A stretch of 64,000 nucleotides of DNA from an uncultured bacterium (GTDB taxonomy: Bacteria > Armatimonadota > UBA5829): NCBI GenBank assembly GCA_964494345.1, contig CAZBSI010000003.1, forward strand, positions 165,888 to 229,887, given 5' to 3'. Made by a program: the position numbers and the translations under genes. Below are positions 9,067-58,384 of the stretch, piece after piece. The notes beneath the pieces are model-generated. The model did no database searches. It saw only the letters and a program-made list of their open reading frames with translations, and was not told where the DNA came from. The stretch's first letter is position 1, and each line of letters opens with the position of its first letter.

Positions 9067-10520
9067 TCCAGCACCTCCCGTGCCACCTGTCTATCATCGA
9101 AGTGAATGATGCGATCTGCGAAAATCTGGTAGTCCTCGTGCCCTTTGCCAGCGATTACAACCACATCACCAGAATTGGCCATTAAAATAGCCTCTTTAAT
9201 AGCCCCGCCGCGATCGGGCTGGATGGTGACCCGGCTTCGGTCGTTATCTGCTATGCCGGTCAATATTTCCGTGATAATCGACACCGGCTCTTCGGTGCGC
9301 GGATTATCTGAAGTGACCACAAGCAGATCGGCGAGTTCGGCGGCAATGGAGCCCATAATCGGACGCTTGCCCCTGTCGCGATCCCCGCCGCAGCCGAAAA
9401 CGACAATCAGATTATTTGAGGTTATGTTTCGCGCCGTGCGAAGAACGTTTTCAAGCTCGTCGGGTGTGTGAGCGTAGTCCACAATCACGCCGAAATCCTG
9501 GCCGCAGTCGACCGATTCAAACCGACCGGGCACCTGATGAGCCGATGCGAGACCTTTAGCAATAGAGTCCATATCCAGCCCCATCGCAAGAGCCGCAGTG
9601 GCCGATGCCAGGGCATTATATACATTAAAATATCCCCCTATTCCGAGCTTGATCGGGACACTTTCACCGGAATAGGTAAGATCAAATTTGACGGAGCGAT
9701 CAGTAACCTCGATGTTCGACGCTCTTACATCGGCAGAAGAATCAATGGCGAAGGTCATCGACTTCGGGCTGGCGTCGATTACCTGCCCCGCCGCGGGGTC
9801 GTCCGCATTGACTACTGCCACAAATGGCTTGTCCGACTTTGCGGGATAGTCCCGGAATAGAATTAGCTTGGCGTCGAGGTAGTTCTCTACGGTGCCGTGG
9901 AAGTCGAGGTGGTCGCGGGCTATGTTGGTGAATACGCCGCAGTCAAACTCGCAGCCCATAGTGCGACCTTGATATAACCCGTGCGAACTGGTCTCTATTG
10001 CGACCGTATCGACCCCATCTTCGACCATCTGCGCGAACAGCCTCTGCAAATCGACTGATTGCGGGGTGGTGTGGTGAGTCTCGATATAATGGTCGTCTAC
10101 TCGTGCGCCCATGGTGCCTATTAAGCCAGCAGTGTGACCTGCTGAGTTAAAAATTGCCTGAATAAGATGGGTGACAGTGGTTTTGCCGCTGGTGCCGGTG
10201 ACCCCGATCAGTTTAATTTTCCTGGTCGGGTTACCGAAAAATGGGGCAGATATCACACCCATCGCCAGCTTGCCGTCCGGGACTATCGCGCAAGGAACGT
10301 CGATACCTCCCGGGTCGCGTTCTGCAATGATGGCAGAGGCGCCGGATGATATGGCGGAGTCGATGAAATTATGCCCGTCGAATGAGCCGCCCTGTATGGC
10401 GATAAACAGCCAGCCGGGCTGCACATTGCGGCTGTCGTAGGTTATGCCTGTGATCTCAGCCTCACTAGGTCTAACCACGCGGACATCTGATAAATATTTG
10501 ACCAGGTCTGTAAACTGCAT
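9039..10520 (-). CDS. murE: UDP-N-acetylmuramoyl-L-alanyl-D-glutamate--2,6-diaminopimelate ligase
   Basis: Contains GVTGTSGKTTVTHLI and is 493 aa. It sits at the dcw position upstream of murF. Confidence 0.85.
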   Translation of the reverse strand: MQFTDLVKYLSDVRVVRPSEAEITGITYDSRNVQPGWLFIAIQGGSFDGHNFIDSAISSGASAIIAERDPGGIDVPCAIVPDGKLAMGVISAPFFGNPTRKIKLIGVTGTSGKTTVTHLIQAIFNSAGHTAGLIGTMGARVDDHYIETHHTTPQSVDLQRLFAQMVEDGVDTVAIETSSHGLYQGRTMGCEFDCGVFTNIARDHLDFHGTVENYLDAKLILFRDYPAKSDKPFVAVVNADDPAAGQVIDASPKSMTFAIDSSADVRASNIEVTDRSVKFDLTYSGESVPIKLGIGGYFNVYNALASATAALAMGLDMDSIAKGLASAHQVPGRFESVDCGQDFGVIVDYAHTPDELENVLRTARNITSNNLIVVFGCGGDRDRGKRPIMGSIAAELADLLVVTSDNPRTEEPVSIITEILTGIADNDRSRVTIQPDRGGAIKEAILMANSGDVVVIAGKGHEDYQIFADRIIHFDDRQVAREVLECSKSRPEK

Positions 10521-10912
10521 AGCTTATATTATAACGCCCCTGATGCGTAATCGGTTACGACCAAACGCAAACAAAAAAAGGGGGTTGCGCCCGCTGTCAA
10601 GATTCGCCCAAGTATCTTGCCCACCAGAGACACAACCCCAATATCGAACGACCGCCAATCGGCTGGCTGGCCGCCGGCTCTTCGCCCAGCAAGCGAAGAG
10701 CGTACGAAAATGGGACTGCGGCAAGAGTTGAAGGTTCGCCCAAGTTCCCACGACCCCTGTCTGCCCGCCGCCCCAAAGCTAGCTTATGACTCACACAAGC
10801 TATAAATTAACGCGCCCTGGCGCTGGTTTGTTGATTCGATTCGACCGAGGCGATTTAAAGCCCGGCTTTTGTGGCCTTCGGCCACGCTTCGGCTGCGTGC
10901 AACCGGAGCAAC

Positions 10913-14980: not shown

Positions 14981-15121
14981 TTAAGCCTTGCCGATCTTGA
15001 ACATCGTTGTGCCGCACGTCGGGCAGGTACCTTTGGTCGCCGGCTTGCCGTTCTTCATGGTAACGGCCTGTGGATCTTTGATCTCCTTCTTAGCCTTGCA
15101 CTTAACGCAATATCCTTCCAT
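14981..15121 (-). CDS. Small zinc-ribbon protein (CxxC...CxxC; resembles DUF5679-type proteins)
   Basis: The 46-aa product is MEGYCVKCKAKKEIKDPQAVTMKNGKPATKGTCPTCGTTMFKIGKA. A GGAAAGGA ribosome-binding site (RBS) lies about 14 nt upstream. Confidence 0.5.
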   Translation of the reverse strand: MEGYCVKCKAKKEIKDPQAVTMKNGKPATKGTCPTCGTTMFKIGKA

Positions 15122-15356
15122 CTTTGACTCACCGTCCTTTCCTCTCGTTGTGAATCGATTATCTGTTTCGTCTACTGCACGATCGCTCGGCAAAGTTTTC
15201 CACAACCTCAAGGGTATTTCCTTCTCAACTGAGCACGTTACGAAAAAAAAGTACAGGAAAATCGCGTTTTTTGGGCATTTTGCGCCTCTCAGGCGCTAAT
15301 TGGAGCTTAAAAGACTTCAAAAAAAGAGGTTGACAAGCCCGGCTTTGTGGTATAAG

Positions 15357-15665
15357 ATGATTGCAGATACTATACCCCCCAGGGTAGTACACAGGAGGAA
15401 CAGGACAACGGATACGCAAAACGATGTCACAATCAGGCTCAAAAAAATAGAAGGCCAGGTAAGAGGTATCCGGCGAATGATAGAGGAAAACAGCCCCTGT
15501 GTCGATGTCCTGCGCCAGGTGCGAGCGGCCAGAAAAGCCTTCGATAAAGTAGGGTTTGTTATTCTCGCCGGCAAGATGAAAGAGTGTGTGACCGCAAAAG
15601 GAGATTCTGCGGAAACCGATGCGGCGATGGAAGATTATATGGAGCTATTCCTCACGTTGACTTAA
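15357..15665 (+). CDS. CsoR/RcnR/FrmR-family (DUF156) metal/thiol-responsive repressor with a Cys-x(28)-Cys fingerprint and no His at the CsoR His61 position (CstR-like)
   Basis: The sequence KKIEGQVRGIRRMIEENSPCVDVL...KMKECV aligns to the alpha1-alpha2 core of CsoR/FrmR. The ORF track's TTG at 15300 is less likely than the ATG at 15357. Confidence 0.6.
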   Translation: MIADTIPPRVVHRRNRTTDTQNDVTIRLKKIEGQVRGIRRMIEENSPCVDVLRQVRAARKAFDKVGFVILAGKMKECVTAKGDSAETDAAMEDYMELFLTLT

Positions 15666-15688
15666 TTTACTGAAAGAAGGTGTGTAGA

Positions 15689-15868
15689 ATGCCAACTTAC
15701 GAGTACAAGTGCAAAGATTGTGACGAGAAGTTTACGGTGGTGCAGCCGATTTTGTCACGGGGTAAGCGGGTTGAATGCCCGACGTGCGGCAGCGAAAACA
15801 CAGAGCGGGAAATATCGAGCTTTAACCCCGCCGGCAACTCCTGCAGTATCGACAGGAGGTTTGGTTGA
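15689..15868 (+). CDS. FmdB-family zinc-ribbon regulatory protein
   Basis: The sequence MPTYEYKCKDCDEKFTVVQPI...ECPTCGS is the FmdB signature. A GAAAGAAGG RBS lies 8 nt upstream. Confidence 0.7.
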   Translation: MPTYEYKCKDCDEKFTVVQPILSRGKRVECPTCGSENTEREISSFNPAGNSCSIDRRFG

Positions 15869-16000
15869 AGGTAAAATAGGCGCCAGTTGGCGCTTAGACC
15901 TATGATCGTGGCGGAGAAATCCGCCTCTTTTTGTGGAATGCAATATACCCCCGGAGGTATGCGAAGATTTTGAAGAGGCGATTAGGAAAGGACGGATAAC

Positions 16001-16330
16001 ATGAGTAAGGCACAGGCAGTTAATCAGGATAATTTCGATGCGGAGGTAATTAACTCCCCAATTCCGGTTTTGATCGACTTTTGGGCGGGCTGGTGTATGC
16101 CGTGTAAGATGCTGGCTCCGACAGTCGATGAGCTTGCCGCTGACTTTGAAGGCAAAATCAAGGTTGTGAAGATCGATATAGACGCTAACCCGCCGTTGGC
16201 CAGCAGATATAATGTTCGCGGTATCCCTACCCTGCTCGTGCTCAACAACGGCACCGAGATCGACAGGATAGTCGGAGTGCAGCCGAAGTCCGCGATTGCG
16301 ACGAAGTTGAACGACTTGCTTGGAGCGTGA
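16001..16330 (+). CDS. trxA: Thioredoxin
   Basis: A 109-aa protein with the WCMPCK active site (WCxPC) and a good RBS. Its stop overlaps the start of the next gene. Confidence 0.85.
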   Translation: MSKAQAVNQDNFDAEVINSPIPVLIDFWAGWCMPCKMLAPTVDELAADFEGKIKVVKIDIDANPPLASRYNVRGIPTLLVLNNGTEIDRIVGVQPKSAIATKLNDLLGA

Positions 16331-16332
16331 GT

Positions 16333-17610
16333 ATGCTCAGATTTGCGATATTGATGTTGAGTGCGAGTTTAGTGTTGGTCTCGGCAGTTGACGCCGAGAC
16401 CAACTACACTGCTCTTGATTTGAGATCAGCCACGCAGCTTGCCTTAAAACACAACCCGATGATATCGAGCGCAGGGGCCGCGGCTGATATGAACAAGGCA
16501 GGGGTTGATAAGGCGACAAGCGCCCTGCGCCCCACCCTCGACGCCGAGGCAAACTACAGTTACCTGTCCAAGGAGACGCTTTTCGGCAACACACCGATTA
16601 TGGAGCACGATACTCAGGCGAACAGGATCGTCGCTGGGCAGTTAATCTACTCCGGCGGGGCGGTACAAGCCGGGATAAAGCAGGCAAAGCAGGGTTATGC
16701 TGCGTCGAATTACGGCGCGGAGGCGGTTCGGGCCGATGTACTGACAAACGTCTCAGTAGCCTATTTCCGCGCCAGGCAGGCGGCAGAAGCAATTGACGTG
16801 GCTCAGGCGAGTGAGAAAGCATTGGCGTCGGGTTATGATGCAGCTGTGAAACTGCACGAGTCTGGTGTGGTGACTAACTCCGACGTGTTGCGTGCAAAAG
16901 TGGCATTGACGTCGGCTGAGGCTGGGGTTATCGCTGCCAAGAATAATTATGAGGTAGCCAAAGCGGCGCTGCGAACGGCGATAGGACTAGATCAAAATCA
17001 ACAGATAGATATCAACCCTGGCGCTACTGATGCGGAACTGAATATCGCTCAAGAGAAGGTCATCAGGCCGGAAGTAGCGGCAGGGGAAGCGGCAGTGCAG
17101 GCGGCAGATGCAGGGAAAGCAGCGGCAAAGGCGGCCCGGCAGCCGAATGTGACGCTGTTTGCAGATTTTTATAATCAACCGGTCGGTGCGCAATTTCCGA
17201 GGCTGACCAATACGGTTATGGCCGGGGTCATGATGAAGCTGAACGTATTTGACGGCGGGTTGACCCGTGCGAAAATTGCTGAGGCAGATGCGGCGTCTCG
17301 GAAAGCCCGTGAGGATCTGGAGGCTCAGAAGCGGCAAGTCGAATTGGAACAGCAAACCGCCGAGTTTAATCTAAACTCTGCCAAAGCCCGAGTGGAGACT
17401 ACGGCCACGCAGGTGCAGTCTGCTGAGGAAAGCCTGAGGTCACTGGAAATAGGATACAGAGAAGGCATATCATCACTGACTGACGTTTTATCCGCAGAGG
17501 CCGCGCTGACATCGGCAAGGGTGACCCGGCTGGCGGCTCTATATGATGTTAAAATTGCCCAGATTAGCCTGTTGCGGGCGTTTGGACATACCGATGAATT
17601 GACGAAGTAA
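16333..17610 (+). CDS. TolC-family outer-membrane efflux protein
   Basis: Has a signal peptide MLRFAILMLSASLVLVSAVDA and two OEP repeats rich in A/Q/L/T typical of TolC. An alternative start is the GTG at 16327. Confidence 0.8.
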   Translation: MLRFAILMLSASLVLVSAVDAETNYTALDLRSATQLALKHNPMISSAGAAADMNKAGVDKATSALRPTLDAEANYSYLSKETLFGNTPIMEHDTQANRIVAGQLIYSGGAVQAGIKQAKQGYAASNYGAEAVRADVLTNVSVAYFRARQAAEAIDVAQASEKALASGYDAAVKLHESGVVTNSDVLRAKVALTSAEAGVIAAKNNYEVAKAALRTAIGLDQNQQIDINPGATDAELNIAQEKVIRPEVAAGEAAVQAADAGKAAAKAARQPNVTLFADFYNQPVGAQFPRLTNTVMAGVMMKLNVFDGGLTRAKIAEADAASRKAREDLEAQKRQVELEQQTAEFNLNSAKARVETTATQVQSAEESLRSLEIGYREGISSLTDVLSAEAALTSARVTRLAALYDVKIAQISLLRAFGHTDELTK

Positions 17611-17632
17611 AACGGCTGTAGAGGATATTAAA

Positions 17633-17818
17633 ATGACCATAGAGAGAACGCTGCGTCTAATCGCGGGTGTATTTATATTGATCAGCGTTGGCCTGGGATA
17701 TTATGTAAGCCCATATTGGTTTCTGTTCACAGCATTTATTGGAGTAAACCTGCTTCAGTCCGGGATAACTGACTGGTGCCCAATGATGAATATATTGCGC
17801 AAGTTGGGGCTTAGATAG
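17633..17818 (+). CDS. Small two-helix membrane protein (DUF2892/YgaP-TM-like)
   Basis: The 61-aa product LIAGVFILISVGLGYYVSPYWFLFTAFIGVNLLQSGITDWCPMMNIL matches the DUF2892 pattern. Confidence 0.5.
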   Translation: MTIERTLRLIAGVFILISVGLGYYVSPYWFLFTAFIGVNLLQSGITDWCPMMNILRKLGLR

Positions 17819-17846
17819 CCGATCGCACGTCGAGTTGGAGGGAATT

Positions 17847-19334
17847 ATGGCCGGAGAAAACGGTAGACCAGCGAAGAAAAGCAAGAAGATTTTCTGGTTT
17901 GCAGGGCTGGGTATTTTAATAGTCATCATTGCAATGATGGCGAGGGGAAAGCACGCTCCTGAAGAGCCGGTTGCGGAGGCTGCGGGGATGATCGAGGCGG
18001 AGACGGTGGTGGTGAGCGCATCGAGCTTGCCGAATAACGTGTCTGCTTCGGGTACCGTGCGGCCGAACATCGAGTCCAAAATCGCGCCGAAGATTATGAG
18101 TAGCGTGGCCGCAGTTTTGGTTCGCGAAGGTGACCATGTCCGCCAGGGGCAGGTGTTAATCCGGCTTGAATCGAGGGATCTCCAGGCTCAAGTGGCGCAG
18201 GCGGAGGCCAGCGTTGCAGCGGCGATGGCGGGGTCTAACAGAGCTCAAACCGGCGCTGGTTTGCAAAAAGTGCAGACCAGCACGAGTATAGCCAACGCAG
18301 AGGCGGCATTGAAAGCGGCACAGGAACAGTTGTCCATTGTTAAAGAAGGACCAAGAAAGCAACAGCGCGCACAAGCCCAACTCGCCGTGGCACAGGCCGA
18401 GGCGCAATTCAAAAACGCGGAGCTGGAGCTTAACAGATATAAAAGATTATATGAGCAGGACGTAGTGCCGAAGCAGAGGCTGGACAGTATGCAGACTGCC
18501 TATGACATCGCGAAGGCCCAGTACGCATCTGCTAAAGAGCAATCAAGCCTGACTGAGGAAGGCTCTCGTGAGCAGGAAATAAGAGCGGCGCAGCAGCAGG
18601 TGTTGCAGGCTGAGCAGGCGCTGCGGCTGGCGAAGGCGTCCTCTGCGCAGGATTCTATGAGCGCACGCGAGGCGCAGGTCGCCGCTTCGCAGACTAAACA
18701 GGCTCGCGCAGCGCTGGAGTTCGCCAGGACTCAGTTGAGTTATGCAACTATTACGTCCCCTATTTCGGGCGTTGTGTCGGCGCGAATGGTCGACCCCGGT
18801 GACACGGTATCCCCTGGGATGCCAATTATCACGGTTCAATCTGCATCACGGCACCGGCTCGAGGCGACGGTTCCTGAAAGCGGCGTAGACGACCTGTTCG
18901 TGGGAAAGCTGGTCTCTGTGGAGTTGGGAGCGGAGAAGAGGACAGCATCGGGCAAGGTGGCGGTGATATCGCCGGCCGGGGATTCGAGCAGCCATAAGTT
19001 TCTGGTAAAAGTCGATTTGCCGGATTCGTTGAACGCGCGCACGGGGGAGTTCGGAATGATTTATTATCCTGTCGGGTTCAGCAAAGGCGTGACTATCCCT
19101 GTCGTGGCGCTTAGGGATCAGGGCGGATTGCCGGTGGTGTTTGTGATCGACAAGCAGGGGCTGGCAAGGATGCAGGCGGTTAAAGTCGGGCGAACTACCG
19201 AAAGCGGCGTTGAGATACTGTCCGGATTGCATGCAGATGATCAGGTCATCGTTAAAAACAGCGGGGTGCTGATTGATGGCGCTAGAGTCAAATTGAAGAG
19301 ATCGAGTTCGGCAGGAGATGGAGTGCAGCAATGA
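17847..19334 (+). CDS. RND efflux periplasmic adaptor (membrane fusion protein, HlyD family)
   Basis: Has an N-terminal TM anchor, a long coiled-coil hairpin and a beta-barrel region with the motif [20 protein letters not shown] precedes the ATG at 17847. Confidence 0.8.
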
Positions 19335-22300
19335 ACAAACACTTCGGAATCGCCGGGCGAATAGCTCATTATTTTATAGATTCAAAATTAACGGCGTTGA
19401 TTGTAGTAGCGTCGGTGCTGTTGGGGGTATTCGCGGTGGTGGTCCTGCCGCGCGAGGAAGAGCCTCAGATTATAGTGCCGATGATCGATATATTCGTCGA
19501 GATGCCGGGGGCAAGTTCCAAGGAAGTCGAGACGCGGGTGTCGACGCCGATGGAGAAGCTGCTTTGGGAGATTCCGGGCGTGGAGTATGTCTACACGACG
19601 AGCAGCCCAGGGCAGTCTATGGCGATTGTGCGGTTCTATGTCGGGGAAAATATCGAGGACAGCATAGCTAAACTGTATAACAAAATGCAGGCAAACTTCG
19701 ACATAATTCCACCCGGAGCCAGCCGTCCGATTATCAAACCCCGCTCCATAGACGACGTTCCGATTCTGGCGTTGACATTCTGGGGCAATGGATATAACGG
19801 CTATGACCTGCGCAGGCTGGTGGCTAAGGTCGACGATCAAATCAAGTCTGTAAATGATGTATCCGAGACGATGGTTATCGGCGGACTGCGCAGACAGGTT
19901 AAAGTGACCCTTGATGCCGCGAAGATGTCGGGCTATGGACTCTCGCCGGTAGCCATTCAGCAGGCGATTCAGGGGGCGAATGTCCAATATCCTGCGGGGC
20001 ATTTTGCGAACAATAATTATAGTTTTGCCCTGCAGACCGGTCAGTTTTTGCAAAGCCCGGAGGATGTCGGGCAGGTCGTGGTCAGCGCTCCCAACGGCAG
20101 GCCCGTATTTCTTAGAGATGTCGCCATTATCGAGGACGGCCCTGAGGAGCCGAACAGCTACGTGAGCATCGCCTTTGGGCCGGCGGCGAGAGAGTCACAC
20201 GAGGCCGAGACTGATTCCATTCACTCGGCGGTGACTTTATCTGTAGCAAAGCGGCAGGGCAAAAACGCGATCAAAGTGGCCGATGCTGTGCTGGAGAAGG
20301 TCAAAACCCTCGAAGGCAAGATGATCCCGCCGGATGTGCATTATACGATCACTCGAAACTACGGCGAGACGGCGACTGAGAAGTCAAACGAGCTTCTGCT
20401 GCACATGCTGATCGCGATTATATCGGTGATCCTGCTGATAGCGTTCGCGTTGGGGAAGAGGGAATCGCTGGTGGTGGCGATAGCGGTGCCTGTTACTCTG
20501 GCGATGACGCTGTTGGTCTTTTACTTATTTGGATATACGCTGAATCGTATCACACTTTTCGCGTTAATCTTTAGCATAGGTATACTCGTAGACGACGCGA
20601 TTGTGGTGGTTGAGAACATTGTCCGCCACTTCCGAATGGAATCCAACGCTAATCGAAGCCTGATTGAGGTTGCGACTGAGGCGGTGGATGAAGTCGGAAA
20701 CCCGACTATATTGGCTACTTTCGCTGTCGTGGCGGCGATTCTGCCGCTGGCGTTTGTGGGCGGGTTAATGGGGCCGTATATGCGCCCGATCCCGGTCGGG
20801 GCGACTGCCGCCATGATATTCTCACTGCTGACCGCTTTTATCATATCGCCGTGGGCTGCTCTCAGGATTCTGCACCGGCAAACAGATGGGACAAACTCTC
20901 ACGACGAACATCACCACGACTCAGAAGGCTGGACCACCCGGCTGTATCGTCGAATGATGAATCCGTTGATCGCAAATTCGGCCAGGCGACACCAGTTTTT
21001 GGGGCTTGTTGTGGTGCTGCTTATAGCAGCGGTGGCGATGCTGCCTGCTAAGTGGGTCACGGTTAAGATGCTGCCGTTTGATAATAAGAGCGAGTTCCAG
21101 GTGGTGGTGGATATGCCGCTGGGCGCGACTCTGGAACAGACCGCTGCGGCTACAAACGCGATGGCGGCGTACCTGCGCACAGTGCCGGAGGTGACCGACG
21201 TCGAAAGTTATGTCGGCACCGCCAGCCCTTATAACTTTAATGGGCTTGTGCGACACTATTTCCTGAGGCGCGGCTGTAACGTGGCTGATCTTCAGGTGAA
21301 CCTGGTAAATAAGCACGAAAGAAAGCGGCAGAGTCACGCTATAGCGAAATCCGTGCGGGATACAATACACGAGATCGGGCGTAAGTATGGGGCCAACGCT
21401 AAGGTGGCGGAGGTGCCGCCAGGGCCGCCTGTTCTGCAGACGCTGGTGGCGGAAATATATGGGCCAGACGATAACACACGCTGGGCGATCGCCGATCAGG
21501 TTAAAGACGTATTCAGCGATACCGAAGGTGTTACCGACGTGGACTGGTATGTTGAGGCAGATCAGACCAAGTTCGAGCTGATACCGGATAAGGAGAAGGC
21601 TGCGCTTAGCGGTATCCCGACCGAACAACTCTCGCAGACTATCGCTCTTGCCGTGGCTGGAAGCGGAATAGAACTGGCTCATATTCCAGAAGCGGCGGAG
21701 GATGTGCCGATCTACCTGCAACTACCATTGGTGCAGAGATCAAGCGTTGAGGAGATCAAAAATATACAGATCCAAAGCACTAAAGGGAACCTTGTTCCGC
21801 TTGGAGAACTGGTGACGGTGCGGCCGACTGTTCAGGATCGAAGCATATATCATAAGAATCTGAAGCCCGTGGTCTATGTGATTGGGGATATGGCGGGGGC
21901 GCATGAGAGTCCCGTTTATGCAATATTGAAGATGAACAAGACTATCAGCGAGATGAAGACGCCGTTGGGCTATGAACTGAAGCATTTCACGACTGCATCT
22001 CCATTCGACACGACCAAATATGCGATGAAATGGGACGGGGAATGGCACATCACCTACGAAGTGTTCAGGGACATGGGCATAGCGTTTGCGGCTGTGCTGG
22101 TGTTGATCTATATACTGGTGGTAGGCTGGTTCAAGTCGTTTAAGACGCCACTGGTGATTATGGCTCCCATCCCGCTGACGCTGGTCGGAATATTGCCTGC
22201 GCACGCGTTGTTGGGGGCGTTTTTTACGGCGACCTCGATGATCGGATTCATCGCCGGGGCGGGGATTATCGTGCGCAACTCGATTATATTGGTGGACTTC

Positions 22301-22543
22301 ATTGAGCTTCGTCGCAGACAGGGAATGCCCTTGGAGGATGCTGTGGTCGACGCCGGCGCAGTGAGGTTCCGGCCGATGTTGTTGACGGCTGCCGCAGTTA
22401 TGGTGGGTGCATCGGTTATTCTCATGGACCCGATATTTCAGGGGCTGGCGATTGCTTTGATGGCTGGTGAAGTGGCGTCCACTTTGCTATCGCGAATGGC
22501 GGTGCCGGTGCTGTATTATATTAGCGAAAGCGGCAAACTATAA
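19331..22543 (+). CDS. RND efflux transporter permease (AcrB/HAE-1-like)
   Basis: A 1070-aa protein with 12 TM helices. TM4 has [13 protein letters not shown], the AcrB-type proton-relay DD motif. Its start overlaps the MFP stop. Confidence 0.9.
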
Positions 22544-22551
22544 GCACGCGT

Positions 22552-22587
22552 GGGGCACGGATGTGATGTATCATTGTGTCGTGCCCC
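22552..22587 (+). terminator. Hairpin after the RND gene (8-bp GC stem, 20-nt loop) followed by an A/T-rich stretch
   Basis: The hairpin is ggggcacg...cgtgcccc, followed by tatataat. Confidence 0.3.
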
Positions 22588-55942: not shown

Positions 55943-58384
55943 CTATTCAGCCTCTGCGTGCGCAGCTACAAGCTGATCGTCCTCTGTAAATTCCCCGGTT
56001 CCGATCGGCTTTCCCATCACCACTTTTACCTGGTGCGTCGTAGCCGCCGGGAATACAGGCAGCAAATGTGAAGGCTGCCGCTCGCCATCGACCCATACCT
56101 CGCGTATCCCCTGCGAAACGTGGTCGGGATTATGGACCTCAATCTCATAGGTCGCCTTGCGGAAACGGCGGGTGACAGTAAACGAGTCCCACTCAGGAGG
56201 AATACACGGATCGACGAGCAATCCCCGAATCTCCGCTCTAACCCCTAATATCCAGTCCATACAGACCTTCCACATCCAACTCGCCGTACCCGTCGTCCAA
56301 CTGAACTCACCCTGGCCGAAGTAGTGGGAATCAGGGCCGTGGACATATTCCGAATATACATAAGGCTCGACTTTGTAGACTTCCGGCTCCATACCCCTGT
56401 GGATAAACGAGACCTTTTTCCAATACTCATAAGCCTCAGCGCCCCTGCCCAGCACGCACTCGGCCATAATCACCCAGCACGTCGGGTGGCAAAAGATGGT
56501 GCCATTCTCCTTTGTGCCAGGCGCAAAACGGGATATAATGCCGATTTTAGGATCTGGCTCGTGATAAGCGGGCAAGAACAGCGCAGGGCCGTAGTCGGTG
56601 TCGAGGTATTTTTTGACCGCATCCATGCACTTGATGGCTCGTTTTCTTGGGGCCGCGCTCCCCATCACCAGCCACGATTGGGCGTTTATATATATGCGAC
56701 CCTCTATGTTGCGGGAAGACCCGAACGCCTCGCCGTCGTCACGAGTGCCGCGAATATACCAGTCACCATCCCACAGGTTTTGATTGATACTGCGGATCAG
56801 CTTGTCACGCTCCTCTATATAACGATCCGCAAGGGAATCGCTGCCGATGAACCACATCAGCGCGGCCGTCTCTTTAAGCATCCACGCCAGTTGCGCCGCG
56901 ACCATAGTGCTCTCTCCCCTGCCCTGCCGACCGACGTAATCCAGCCCGTCGTTCCAGTCGGCCGCCATTATAAGGGGGATGCCGCGATCGCTCATATGCG
57001 CCAGCGTGTAGTCTAAAGCCCTGACCAGATGCTGCCGCACCGTCTCGGAGCCACTGTCGTAGTAGCGCACGGATTCATCGAGAAAGACTAAATCCCCAGT
57101 CTCTTTGAAGTATTCGATCACGCCCTGCACCAGCCACATTGGGTCGTCGGAATGGCCTGTTTTCACCCCGATGTCCGTAAGCGGGTCCCAGTTGTGCAGG
57201 GTGCTGCCGTCCTGGAACTGGTGTTCGAGCAAATATCGCACGCGCTCGCGCGCCCAATCGGTGTCGTTTGGGAGAATGGCGAGCATATCCTGCCAACTGT
57301 CGCGCCATCCGATGATCGACCCCCCGCCGATGTAGTATGAGTCCATTCTGCTCCATCGCGAAGTGACCCAGGCCTGGTATTTATTCCAGATATTTACAGA
57401 CAGATTGAACTCGTTGCCTGGAGTGTCGACCAGCGTCCGATCGAGATAATACTCCCAGTAGTTGTGCACCTCATCAAGGCCGCGCTGAGCCTCTTCCCAA
57501 CTGTCGTATCTGCGCTTTAGGGATAACGCCTCTTCCGTTCTATGGACAACGCCCACCAGGACAATGAATTGCACTTCTTCGCCTGCGGGAATCTCGAAAC
57601 TATGCTGCAATGCGGCCATGATATCTCTACCGCAGCCCTGTGTATTACGAAGTTTGCCGTCCTCAATAGCCTGAGGCTTATGCAGGCCGCGATACATCCC
57701 CATAAACTCCTCGTCGAAACAGTCGAAGCCCTCGACCGGAGCGCTGGAGGTCATAAAGGCCCATTTATCCCATCTCGCGTTTGGGTTGCCCGTCACCGAA
57801 CCGCTGGTGATGTTCCAGAACCGGGTGGTGGCGAATATGGTATCCTGTTCAACCGACGCCTCGTTGAACAGCACGGAGAAATTTGCTTCGACGGCGTTGT
57901 AGGCGTAGTTGGCAAGGTCCCACTTGACGTAAGGGAACGCCTGGATGCGACGGGGCTTATCCGACGCATTTTTTAGCGTGACCATCCAGACTTCGCAATC
58001 ATCCCTGGGCGGCACGTAATATGTGATAGAGCTATCTATCCCATGAGAAGAGTAGCTGACTTTGGTGTATCCCATGCCGTGGCGCGCTTCGAAGTTGGAG
58101 ATATCCTCGCACATCGGCTGCCAATTAGCGCTCCAGTATTCCCCGGTGTCCGCGTCCCGCAGGAAAATATAGCGCCCTGGCCTGTCTTGCAGCAGCACCA
58201 GGGGGGCGTATTCGCGGGTTATGCGGTTGTAGCCGGAGGTCTCGAAAAACGAGTGCCCCCCACCCGTCTGCGAACAAATCGCACAGTAGCGGCCATTGGT
58301 GAGATAGTTGACCCACGGCCGAGGCGTATCCGGACGGGTAATGATATATTCTCGCCCATCACTGGAAAACTGACCGTAGCTCAT
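55943..58384 (-). CDS. GH94 glycoside phosphorylase (cellobiose/chitobiose phosphorylase-like)
   Basis: The N-terminus REYIITRPDTPRPWVNYLTNG and the C-terminal KKYLDTDYGP, KENGTIFCHP and HNPDHVSQGI blocks match GH94 enzymes. It is 813 aa. Confidence 0.8.
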   Translation of the reverse strand: MSYGQFSSDGREYIITRPDTPRPWVNYLTNGRYCAICSQTGGGHSFFETSGYNRITREYAPLVLLQDRPGRYIFLRDADTGEYWSANWQPMCEDISNFEARHGMGYTKVSYSSHGIDSSITYYVPPRDDCEVWMVTLKNASDKPRRIQAFPYVKWDLANYAYNAVEANFSVLFNEASVEQDTIFATTRFWNITSGSVTGNPNARWDKWAFMTSSAPVEGFDCFDEEFMGMYRGLHKPQAIEDGKLRNTQGCGRDIMAALQHSFEIPAGEEVQFIVLVGVVHRTEEALSLKRRYDSWEEAQRGLDEVHNYWEYYLDRTLVDTPGNEFNLSVNIWNKYQAWVTSRWSRMDSYYIGGGSIIGWRDSWQDMLAILPNDTDWARERVRYLLEHQFQDGSTLHNWDPLTDIGVKTGHSDDPMWLVQGVIEYFKETGDLVFLDESVRYYDSGSETVRQHLVRALDYTLAHMSDRGIPLIMAADWNDGLDYVGRQGRGESTMVAAQLAWMLKETAALMWFIGSDSLADRYIEERDKLIRSINQNLWDGDWYIRGTRDDGEAFGSSRNIEGRIYINAQSWLVMGSAAPRKRAIKCMDAVKKYLDTDYGPALFLPAYHEPDPKIGIISRFAPGTKENGTIFCHPTCWVIMAECVLGRGAEAYEYWKKVSFIHRGMEPEVYKVEPYVYSEYVHGPDSHYFGQGEFSWTTGTASWMWKVCMDWILGVRAEIRGLLVDPCIPPEWDSFTVTRRFRKATYEIEVHNPDHVSQGIREVWVDGERQPSHLLPVFPAATTHQVKVVMGKPIGTGEFTEDDQLVAAHAEAE

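Follow-up and report, generated by a model that had tools for sequence, protein, structure and literature searches.

A 64,000-nucleotide stretch of a contig from an uncultured Armatimonadota bacterium (hereafter the window) carries, at about 15.3 to 22.5 kb, seven co-directional genes that encode a DUF156/CsoR-family repressor, an FmdB-family zinc ribbon, a thioredoxin, a TolC-like outer-membrane channel, a DUF2892 membrane peptide, a periplasmic adaptor (membrane fusion protein, MFP) and an inner-membrane pump of the resistance-nodulation-division (RND) type. These identities agree with Pfam and NCBIfam profile scores, which bear out the names given to all seven genes in an earlier note on this DNA. 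We propose, with a probability of about 0.58, that the genes form a thiol-stress detoxification regulon under a CsoR-family repressor that acts as a two-cysteine chemical switch and not as a copper sensor.

In the proposed mechanism, a reduced repressor tetramer would occupy two predicted operators, O1 in front of the regulator gene and O2 in front of the thioredoxin gene. A thiol-reactive inducer (candidates are oxidants, organic peroxide products, electrophiles and reactive sulfur species) would modify or cross-link Cys48 and Cys77' across the subunit interface. A neighbouring lysine or arginine probably keeps the thiolate reactive, which fits the finding that cysteine nucleophilicity, and not merely a cysteine pair, sets non-metal specificity in the CsoR family (PMC8643695). 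The modified repressor would leave the DNA and both transcription units would be derepressed. Thioredoxin would repair oxidised thiols and probably re-reduce the repressor, giving negative feedback, and the amphiphilic offender or damage products would be expelled by the three-part pump, to which DUF2892 would contribute a cysteine-bearing micro-subunit.

The regulator and its cysteine pair

The regulator scored 84.8 bits against PF02583 (DUF156, CsoR/RcnR; cut-off 22.8) and matched solved structures with E-values of 1e-13 (InrS) and 1e-11 (CsoR). Its fingerprint residues were assigned from HMMER alignments to five solved family members. In the numbering of the earlier note, positions X, Y and Z are Cys48 (15498-15500), Lys73 (15573-15575) and Cys77 (15585-15587), and the structure alignments confirmed what that note had read from the letters, namely two cysteines spaced 29 residues apart and a lysine in place of the histidine. 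Lys73 aligns with the histidine of InrS, Geobacillus CsoR, Streptomyces CsoR and 6AHX, and with the asparagine of solved CstR (7mq1). From its probable start onward the regulator has no histidine residues, its first cysteine is preceded by a proline (S-P-C), and the second-shell tyrosine of CsoR (R-Y-C) is absent. The regulator does not have the x-C-H-C fingerprint of Cu(I)-sensing CsoR, in which a histidine stands four residues before the second cysteine. With lysine instead of histidine at position 73, no histidine elsewhere and no second-shell tyrosine, a Cys-His-Cys (S2N) Cu(I) site is excluded, and the alignment check for such a site that had been suggested earlier found none. The lack of any histidine also sets the regulator apart from RcnR and InrS (H-C-H-H or H-C-H-C, with an N-terminal histidine) and from FrmR (Pro2-Cys-His); the N-termini of outgroup regulators read M-A-x-x-T-Q, without Pro2 or His3. 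No P-type ATPase or CopZ gene was found in the operon or in the syntenic Armatimonadota loci, and no copA/copZ/cusF-type gene is present in the operon.

The regulator does carry the x-C-x-C fingerprint of CstR, without an N-terminal ligand. This pattern together with a sulfide-detoxification neighbourhood is how persulfide-sensor clusters of the DUF156 similarity network are described (clusters 3, 4 and 10; clusters 6-9 are stated to be uncharacterised) (PMC8643695). A narrower case of our proposal would be a true CstR-type persulfide sensor, in which di-, tri- or tetrasulfide bridges form between the two cysteines and the pump and DUF2892 peptide export organic polysulfides, sulfane sulfur or thiocyanate-like anions. 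The match to the CstR clusters speaks for this case, but position Y is lysine or arginine and not the asparagine of solved CstR, and the regulator scores higher with InrS (54 bits) and CsoR (46-48 bits) than with solved CstR (41 bits). The earlier description of the regulator as CstR-like therefore holds at the level of the x-C-x-C pattern only, because its overall similarity is not nearer to CstR. Furthermore, no gene for sulfide:quinone oxidoreductase (SQR), persulfide dioxygenase, rhodanese/TusA or TauE, which define CstR regulons, lies beside the regulator in 14 Armatimonadota loci or in the window operon. We consider the persulfide case improbable, and return to it below with the gene neighbourhoods of other phyla.

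Homologous loci (labelled L001, L002 and so on) show the cysteine pair beside thiol-active neighbours in Armatimonadota. Among 22 Armatimonadota locus rows, which represent about 14 species, 21 have Cys-[Lys/Arg]-Cys (L017 has leucine at Y), and both cysteines are invariant across the clade. By comparison, none of the other 66 loci has this combination, all being Cys-His-Cys, Cys-Tyr-Cys or Cys-Asn-Cys. The order regulator, zinc ribbon, thioredoxin, channel, DUF2892, MFP and RND is shared by L002-L006, L007/L008 and L010, and L014 differs only in that its zinc ribbon gene comes before that of the regulator. The shared order spans at least five further Armatimonadota lineages with differing flanking genes, which is far beyond chance and does not bear out the earlier view of the arrangement as non-standard. 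Other members depart from it: L019 is missing the thioredoxin and zinc ribbon genes, the pump operon of L022 is divergent from the regulator and thioredoxin genes, the pump of L012 is fragmented, and L015, L016, L018 and L020 retain the regulator and a thioredoxin only. The thioredoxins of these last four loci and of L022 have an N-terminal signal or anchor and are predicted to be exported or anchored. A DsbA-like protein adjoins the regulator in L021, and an OsmC-like protein is found in addition in L016 and L018. Overall, a thioredoxin adjoins the regulator in most members of the Cys-[Lys/Arg]-Cys clade and the pump is present in about half. Thiol-disulfide oxidoreductases are the constant companions of this regulator and the pump is a frequent add-on. 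These neighbours (thioredoxin, DsbA-like and OsmC proteins) and the missing Cu(I) site favour the direction of the earlier suggestion that the system is induced by thiol stress rather than by metals; its assignment to the CstR type was over-specific.

Two side observations concern individual loci. On the long contig of L001/L012 (11000-16100) the adaptor and pump genes are split into numerous pieces and there is no channel gene, which could reflect either pseudogenisation or frameshift errors in long reads. A nearby open reading frame (ORF) in L022 has a P-type-ATPase-like motif by eye, for which Pfam gave no match; if real, it would favour a metal role.

Searched with a profile, 1.84 billion representative proteins yielded 7572 DUF156 proteins. 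Cys-Arg-Cys or Cys-Lys-Cys is present in 28 of the best 150, many of them from Thermoleophilia and other Actinobacteria, and the Actinobacterial ones might fall into cluster 3 of the similarity network. Members with Cys-His-Cys or Cys-Tyr-Cys were also seen directly upstream of trxA, in Desulfosporosinus (L036), Formimonas (L040), Thermoanaerobacter (L066), Clostridia (L079) and Dehalobacterium (L086), and three or four of the Firmicutes trxA loci read by eye as hisS-aspS-regulator-trxA-rarA-iscR/iscS-mnmA. The presence of DUF156 genes beside a housekeeping trxA in Firmicutes indicates that the DUF156-thioredoxin pairing is broader than the Armatimonadota clade, and suggests that a widespread, unstudied pairing exists in Firmicutes.

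Operators, transcription units and gene starts

The predicted operator is a CsoR-type palindrome with a G/C tract (ATACCCCC-NN-GGGGTAT). O1 (ATACCCCCCAGGGTA, 15372..15386) matches this pattern exactly and lies just 3' of the -10 element of the promoter P1. O2 (ATACCCCCGGAGGTAT, 15945..15960) matches the pattern exactly when read on the + strand and with one mismatch on the - strand; it lies 41 nt before the thioredoxin start. The window thus contains two exact matches, compared with 0.5 expected even with one mismatch allowed (the background is about 0.1 per 10 kb). The operator is found at equivalent positions in all eight of the first-fetched loci. A regular expression placed it ahead of the regulator gene in 11 of the 14 Armatimonadota loci; in the remaining three, degenerate copies can be seen. 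An equivalent of O2 precedes the thioredoxin gene in L002-L008, L012 and L014, and the operator stands directly in front of the divergent pump operon in L022. Palindromic G/C-tract operators at regulated promoters are characteristic of the CsoR superfamily, and the predicted sites have this form. The two conserved predicted operators tie the regulator both to its own gene and to the thioredoxin and pump genes. A third operator-like site in the window (56391-56405), which differs from the pattern at one position and falls within a minus-strand ORF of 813 aa, was dismissed as a chance match. A variant site with a shorter G/C tract (ATACC.TACCGGGTA..GTAT) was noticed before the exported thioredoxin genes of L015 (about 10350-10375) and L020 (about 10525-10550).

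Two conserved hairpins lie on the + strand between the zinc ribbon and thioredoxin genes (15877..15933; 15877-15896 and 15910-15925). They were detected by a terminator scan, and the second is followed by a T-run (TCTTTTTGTG) and is terminator-like. The region has a fold energy of -27.6 kcal/mol (z = -3.4), and both hairpins are kept in six loci with compensatory changes. Rfam gave no known RNA element in the leader or intergenic regions. Because the conserved hairpin and T-run and the second operator sit between these two genes, the locus probably comprises two operator-controlled units, one of the regulator and zinc ribbon genes and one of the thioredoxin, channel, DUF2892, MFP and RND genes. 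The earlier view of the seven genes as a single translationally coupled operon does not fit with the hairpins and second operator, which indicate two units.

Most of the gene junctions are short or overlapping, as had been claimed, but the zinc ribbon and thioredoxin genes are 132 nt apart, an interval that contains both hairpins and O2. The regulator and zinc ribbon genes are separated by 23 nt, the channel and DUF2892 genes by 22 nt, and the DUF2892 and MFP genes by 16-28 nt. The thioredoxin stop had been thought to overlap the channel start. This is so only if GTG 16327 is used (a 4-nt overlap), whereas ATG 16333 lies 2 nt past the stop; a GGAG Shine-Dalgarno sequence is located 7 nt before this ATG, and relatives have the same 2-nt layout. 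A GGAGG Shine-Dalgarno sequence precedes the MFP start at ATG 17847. The reported overlap of the MFP stop with the RND start was upheld, in the form ATGA.

The regulator gene (15408..15665, + strand; PF02583; 85 aa) has a probable non-canonical ACG start. The promoter P1 (15330..15358, + strand) was identified by a consensus scan as TTGACA, a 17-nt spacer and TAAGAT, with 10 of 12 matches; an alternative is an extended -10 element, TGnTATAAG, at 15348-15356. The promoter block (GGTTGACAAGCC..TGTGGTATAAGAT) is near-identical base by base in L001, L002, L007 and L010. Downstream of O1, the Shine-Dalgarno sequence AGGAGG (15393..15398, + strand) is kept in the five closest lineages, all of which have an in-frame ACG 2-9 nt after it. 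In the window, L010 and L002, no ATG, GTG or TTG is present at or near the homologous start position. Homologues of the regulator are 77-90 aa long and begin at or near the position of 15408, and the residues that follow the ACG (T-D-T-Q-N-D-V) are kept by codons that differ synonymously between lineages. In outgroup species the operator and Shine-Dalgarno sequence are followed by ATG-GCx (M-A-x-x-T-Q-x-D-V...RLKKIEGQ). The conserved AGGAGG and in-frame ACG, the lack of a usual start codon, the homologue lengths and the stops upstream all indicate that the regulator probably starts at about 15408 with a conserved ACG. ACG initiates weakly in Escherichia coli (bioRxiv 10.1101/063800).

Three other starts were rejected. 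The ATG at 15357, where the regulator had earlier been taken to begin, falls partly within the -10 element of the conserved promoter, ahead of the operator, and L010 and L002 have in-frame stops in this stretch. TTG 15300 is upstream of the conserved promoter, again with in-frame stops in relatives. A frameshift on an A7 run from the out-of-frame ATG 15424 was dropped, as L002 and L010 have no slippery run. The regulator products of public gene callers are either too short (62-72 aa) or over-extended (121 aa).

The remaining genes of the two units lie on the + strand. The zinc ribbon (15689..15868) is a 59-aa FmdB-family Cys4 protein (Zn_ribbon_8, 57 bits; TIGR02605, 60 bits). Its gene, which also lies between those of the regulator and thioredoxin in L002, L007, L010 and L012, looks like one predicted to be co-transcribed with the regulator gene. 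The thioredoxin (16001..16330, 109 aa) is of the cytoplasmic TrxA type, exceeding the TIGR01068 cut-off (120.8 bits; cut-off 96.8). Its active site, W-C-M-P-C at 16091-16105, is a variant of the canonical W-C-G-P-C. The variant was also seen in L002, L010, L014, L020 and one Thermoanaerobacter thioredoxin, and sister lineages retain CGPC. The TolC-like channel (16333..17610; alternative start GTG 16327) scored 198 bits against PF02321 (OEP), and has a signal peptide at its N-terminus (MLRFAILMLSASLVLVSAVDA). The adaptor (17847..19334; alternative start TTG 17835) has a long alpha-hairpin and scored 212.5 bits against TIGR01730.

The flanks of the locus were also annotated. A DUF5679 Cys4 zinc-ribbon gene (14981-15211, - strand) is divergent from the regulator, and such a gene also adjoins the regulator in L002-L006, L010, L011 and L018. 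Also upstream on the opposite strand is a cluster of cell-division genes, whose members were identified by eye as mraZ, rsmH, an ftsL-like gene and a gene for a penicillin-binding protein. Straight after the RND stop there is an 8-bp G/C-rich hairpin (GGGGCACG..CGTGCCCC, 22552-22587) with a 20-nt loop and no T-run, which may mark the end of the pump unit. Further downstream are a Yip1/TPR protein gene and two genes whose counterparts in L002 have Peptidase_M48 domains. The nearest public genome is an Armatimonadota metagenome-assembled genome (JBMNES010000001.1).

The pump, its DUF2892 partner and the likely inducer

The RND pump (19331..22543, + strand, 1070 aa) scored 534 bits against PF00873 (ACR_tran). 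Its fourth transmembrane segment (TM4) has an Asp-Asp (DD) motif at 20588-20617, and the pump scored 249.7 bits against the CusA/CzcA model TIGR00914, far below the cut-off of 701.45. The pump therefore has neither the model score nor the TM4 type (DFG-DGA-VEN) of heavy-metal-efflux RND pumps, and the earlier reading that it is not of the CzcA/CusA type is supported by both results. Scores against curated multidrug models (HAE1 type, AcrB/MexB) were also below cut-off (NF033617, 459 with a cut-off of 1250; TIGR00915, 313 with a cut-off of 940). Among solved pumps, MexK and TriC came nearest (222 bits), and ZneA scored 187 bits. Judged by these scores, the pump belongs to a deep-branching RND subfamily that lies at about the same distance from every solved RND pump.

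The nearest solved pumps being multidrug transporters (MexK, TriC, MexB, AcrB), the genes might form an ordinary multidrug efflux operon. On this view the cysteines would have a structural role, the thioredoxin gene would be a housekeeping neighbour, and the local repressor would either bind a small organic ligand or stay on the DNA permanently. The DUF156 genes beside housekeeping trxA in Firmicutes and the several Actinobacterial homologues that stand alone would agree with this. We regard it as very unlikely. The DUF156 family is all-helical with no known ligand pocket, and both cysteines are invariant in the clade. The thioredoxin and channel genes are 2 nt apart or overlapping with O2 in front of them, and genes for redox partners accompany two sensors of unrelated type, as described below.

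The DUF2892/YgaP-like_TM peptide (17633..17818, + strand; 61 aa; PF11127, 52 bits) has two predicted membrane helices. It is present in all eight pump-bearing Armatimonadota loci with an invariant W-C-P-M (the cysteine codon is at 17777-17779). A scan with a DUF2892 alignment found at least 579 relatives in metagenomes. In the best 80 loci, the peptide is 64-78% identical, and nearly always its gene is the last of a series channel, MFP, RND, DUF2892, directly behind an RND gene orthologous to that of the window (about 1400-1480 bits). Source names place these relatives in Terriglobales/Acidobacteriia (Acidobacteriota), where the pump and DUF2892 pair is widespread on contigs from soil. The upstream context was counted in 18 metagenome loci with enough upstream sequence. 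An OsmC-like gene lies directly before the channel gene in 15 of them, 14 have an extracytoplasmic function (ECF) sigma factor with, or beside, a zf-HC2 anti-sigma domain of the zinc-associated anti-sigma (ZAS) type, three have an ArsR-type regulator, and two have a redoxin and a rhodanese too. Independent gene calls for a Terriglobales contig gave sigma, OsmC, OEP, MFP, RND and YgaP_TM, with a 4-nt overlap between the RND and DUF2892 genes, and the module occurs in L179 (1636-9192), L114, L134, L151, L163 and others. The Armatimonadota and Acidobacteriota contexts indicate that the same pump and micro-protein module is wired to thiol- or oxidative-stress machinery in two phyla through unrelated regulators. 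A literature search on CsoR with RND and thioredoxin, on DUF2892, and on ECF sigma/OsmC/RND found no description of the module.

We tentatively suggest, while regarding it as somewhat doubtful, that the pump belongs to a new RND subfamily found across phyla. This subfamily would have an obligatory cysteine-bearing DUF2892 micro-subunit, would export products of thiol or oxidative stress, and would be plugged into at least two unrelated thiol sensors (the His-free Cys-Lys-Cys repressor, and the ECF sigma/zinc-finger anti-sigma pair).

The module also bears on the class of inducer. The OsmC and ECF sigma/ZAS partners speak for stress from peroxides, disulfides or electrophiles, and being the commonest partners they count against the persulfide case. 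Reactive sulfur species are pointed to by the rhodanese ancestry of DUF2892, which by its Pfam name is the membrane domain of the rhodanese YgaP, and by the H2S-induced genes of Azospira suillum PS. In that organism, H2S induced a DUF2892 gene about 10-fold, and an RND/SQR operon (PMC5358917). Both observations favour the persulfide case, as do the rhodanese and redoxin genes beside the module in two Acidobacteriota pump loci. Several relatives also bear record names of a type given to genomes from anaerobic digesters, a habitat rich in sulfide, which would agree with it.

Several points weigh against our proposal of a thiol-stress regulon. The inducer class is inferred from neighbouring genes only, and the pump substrate cannot be read from sequence because the pump is roughly equidistant from the solved RND pumps. 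No convincing or conserved sigma-70-type promoter was found before the thioredoxin gene by a consensus scan and comparison with relatives, so unit 2 may be transcribed by read-through from P1; attenuated read-through with a roadblock at O2 is a possible arrangement. L010 lacks O2 and has a different perfect palindrome there (GGAGATAT-ATA-ATATCTCC, L010 2385-2410). The wider Actinobacterial Cys-[Lys/Arg]-Cys homologues share no common neighbourhood. A Thermoleophilia Cys-Lys-Cys gene (L089, 6001-7247) overlaps the start of a gene for a 319-aa Pyr_redox_2 (pyridine-nucleotide) disulfide oxidoreductase of thioredoxin-reductase size, a pairing that by itself favours our proposal; two homologues precede methyltransferase and DUF362 Fe-S protein genes, and three stand alone. 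These heterogeneous or uninformative contexts neither confirm nor contradict a redox role. Lastly, three points are compatible with metals. Thioredoxin-like and DsbA-like proteins contribute to copper tolerance in some bacteria (the Scs system), the CP motif of the DUF2892 peptide recalls the CPx motif of metal ATPases, and two cysteines close to a positive charge could, as in CueR, serve as a site for Cu(I), Ag(I) or Au(I).

The regulator could accordingly be imagined as a soft-metal sensor, its two cysteines forming a linear bis-thiolate site for Cu(I), Ag(I), Au(I), Hg(II) or a metalloid and the lysine or arginine neutralising the charge. The metal would then be the substrate of the pump, and thioredoxin would mend disulfides formed by metal catalysis. 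Most characterised CsoR-family members sense metals (PMC8643695), the predicted operator is of the classical CsoR type, and both W-C-P-M of DUF2892 and a His/acidic pump loop (HDEHHHD) could be metal-related. The loop was rejected as a metal site, being absent from the conserved sequence of orthologues, and the adaptor has no N-terminal Met/His clusters. The soft-metal explanation is further weakened by the missing histidine and second-shell tyrosine, the lack of copA/copZ/cusF-type genes in the operon, the DD-type TM4 and the CusA/CzcA score (249.7 compared with a cut-off of 701), and by the pairing of the orthologous pump with OsmC in Acidobacteriota. In addition, Staphylococcus aureus CstR is reported to be Cu(I)-insensitive in cells (PMC8643695). 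We consider a soft-metal sensor unlikely, and favour the thiol switch.

Comparison with known systems

The CsoR family is a textbook family of metal sensors, and few of its non-metal members (CstR, FrmR) are understood. A His-free Cys-[Lys/Arg]-Cys clade whose operator is clearly defined and whose regulon comprises thioredoxin and an RND pump would widen the known chemistry and outputs of the family. Such a clade, from a phylum that has received little study, would also supply a thiol switch that is small and open to testing. If the suggested cross-phylum RND subfamily is real, the Armatimonadota repressor, with a thioredoxin and an RND pump under its control, would have no known precedent among CsoR-family members. 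Its apparent ACG start would be a rare conserved non-canonical initiation codon on an autoregulated repressor. The link between RND pumps and DUF2892 recurs hundreds of times in soil metagenomes beside OsmC and redox-type sigma systems, and is a functional lead for DUF2892 and for natural pump exports beyond antibiotics and metals. The predicted CsoR-family thiol switch and the stress-regulated RND pump are of known kinds; the wider interest lies in the apparent ACG start and in the repeated pairing of RND pump and DUF2892.

The closest comparison for the switch itself is CstR of S. aureus, Enterococcus faecalis and Streptococcus pneumoniae (PDB 7MQ1-3), which has the same PF02583 fold, a His-less x-C-x-C fingerprint and a palindromic operator. 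The inter-subunit dithiol switch of CstR is presumed for the window regulator as well. The two differ at position Y (lysine or arginine in the window clade, asparagine in CstR), in their regulons (thioredoxin and an RND pump versus sulfide-detoxification enzymes) and in that the window regulator comes from a diderm phylum. CsoR of Mycobacterium tuberculosis, Bacillus subtilis, Streptomyces lividans and Geobacillus shares with the window regulator its family, its size, a cysteine pair 29 residues apart, autoregulation and a G/C-tract palindromic operator with TA-rich arms. In contrast to CsoR, the window regulator has no histidine, no tyrosine before the first cysteine and no copA/copZ neighbours; without the histidine and tyrosine it cannot form the S2N Cu(I) site or the allosteric hydrogen-bond network of CsoR.

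Other systems resemble the regulon in its outputs. A. suillum PS provides a precedent for a sulfide-induced RND operon and a stand-alone DUF2892 gene, likened to the window pump by gene type alone; its genes are at separate loci, and their deletion had little phenotype (PMC5358917). The SoxR-MexGHI-OpmD system of Pseudomonas aeruginosa is an analogous case of a redox regulator that controls a tripartite RND pump with a small membrane protein, MexG. It differs in that SoxR is a MerR-type [2Fe-2S] activator and MexG is of the DoxX type, both unrelated to the window proteins, and in having no thioredoxin. In the SigR-RsrA-trxBA disulfide-stress circuit of Streptomyces coelicolor, which pairs an ECF sigma factor with a zinc-binding ZAS anti-sigma factor, a thiol sensor induces the thioredoxin that re-reduces it. 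The sensor in the window is a CsoR-family repressor and not a sigma/anti-sigma pair, whereas the pump module of Acidobacteriota is, like SigR-RsrA, preceded by an ECF sigma factor with a zf-HC2 (ZAS-type) domain of putative redox activity.

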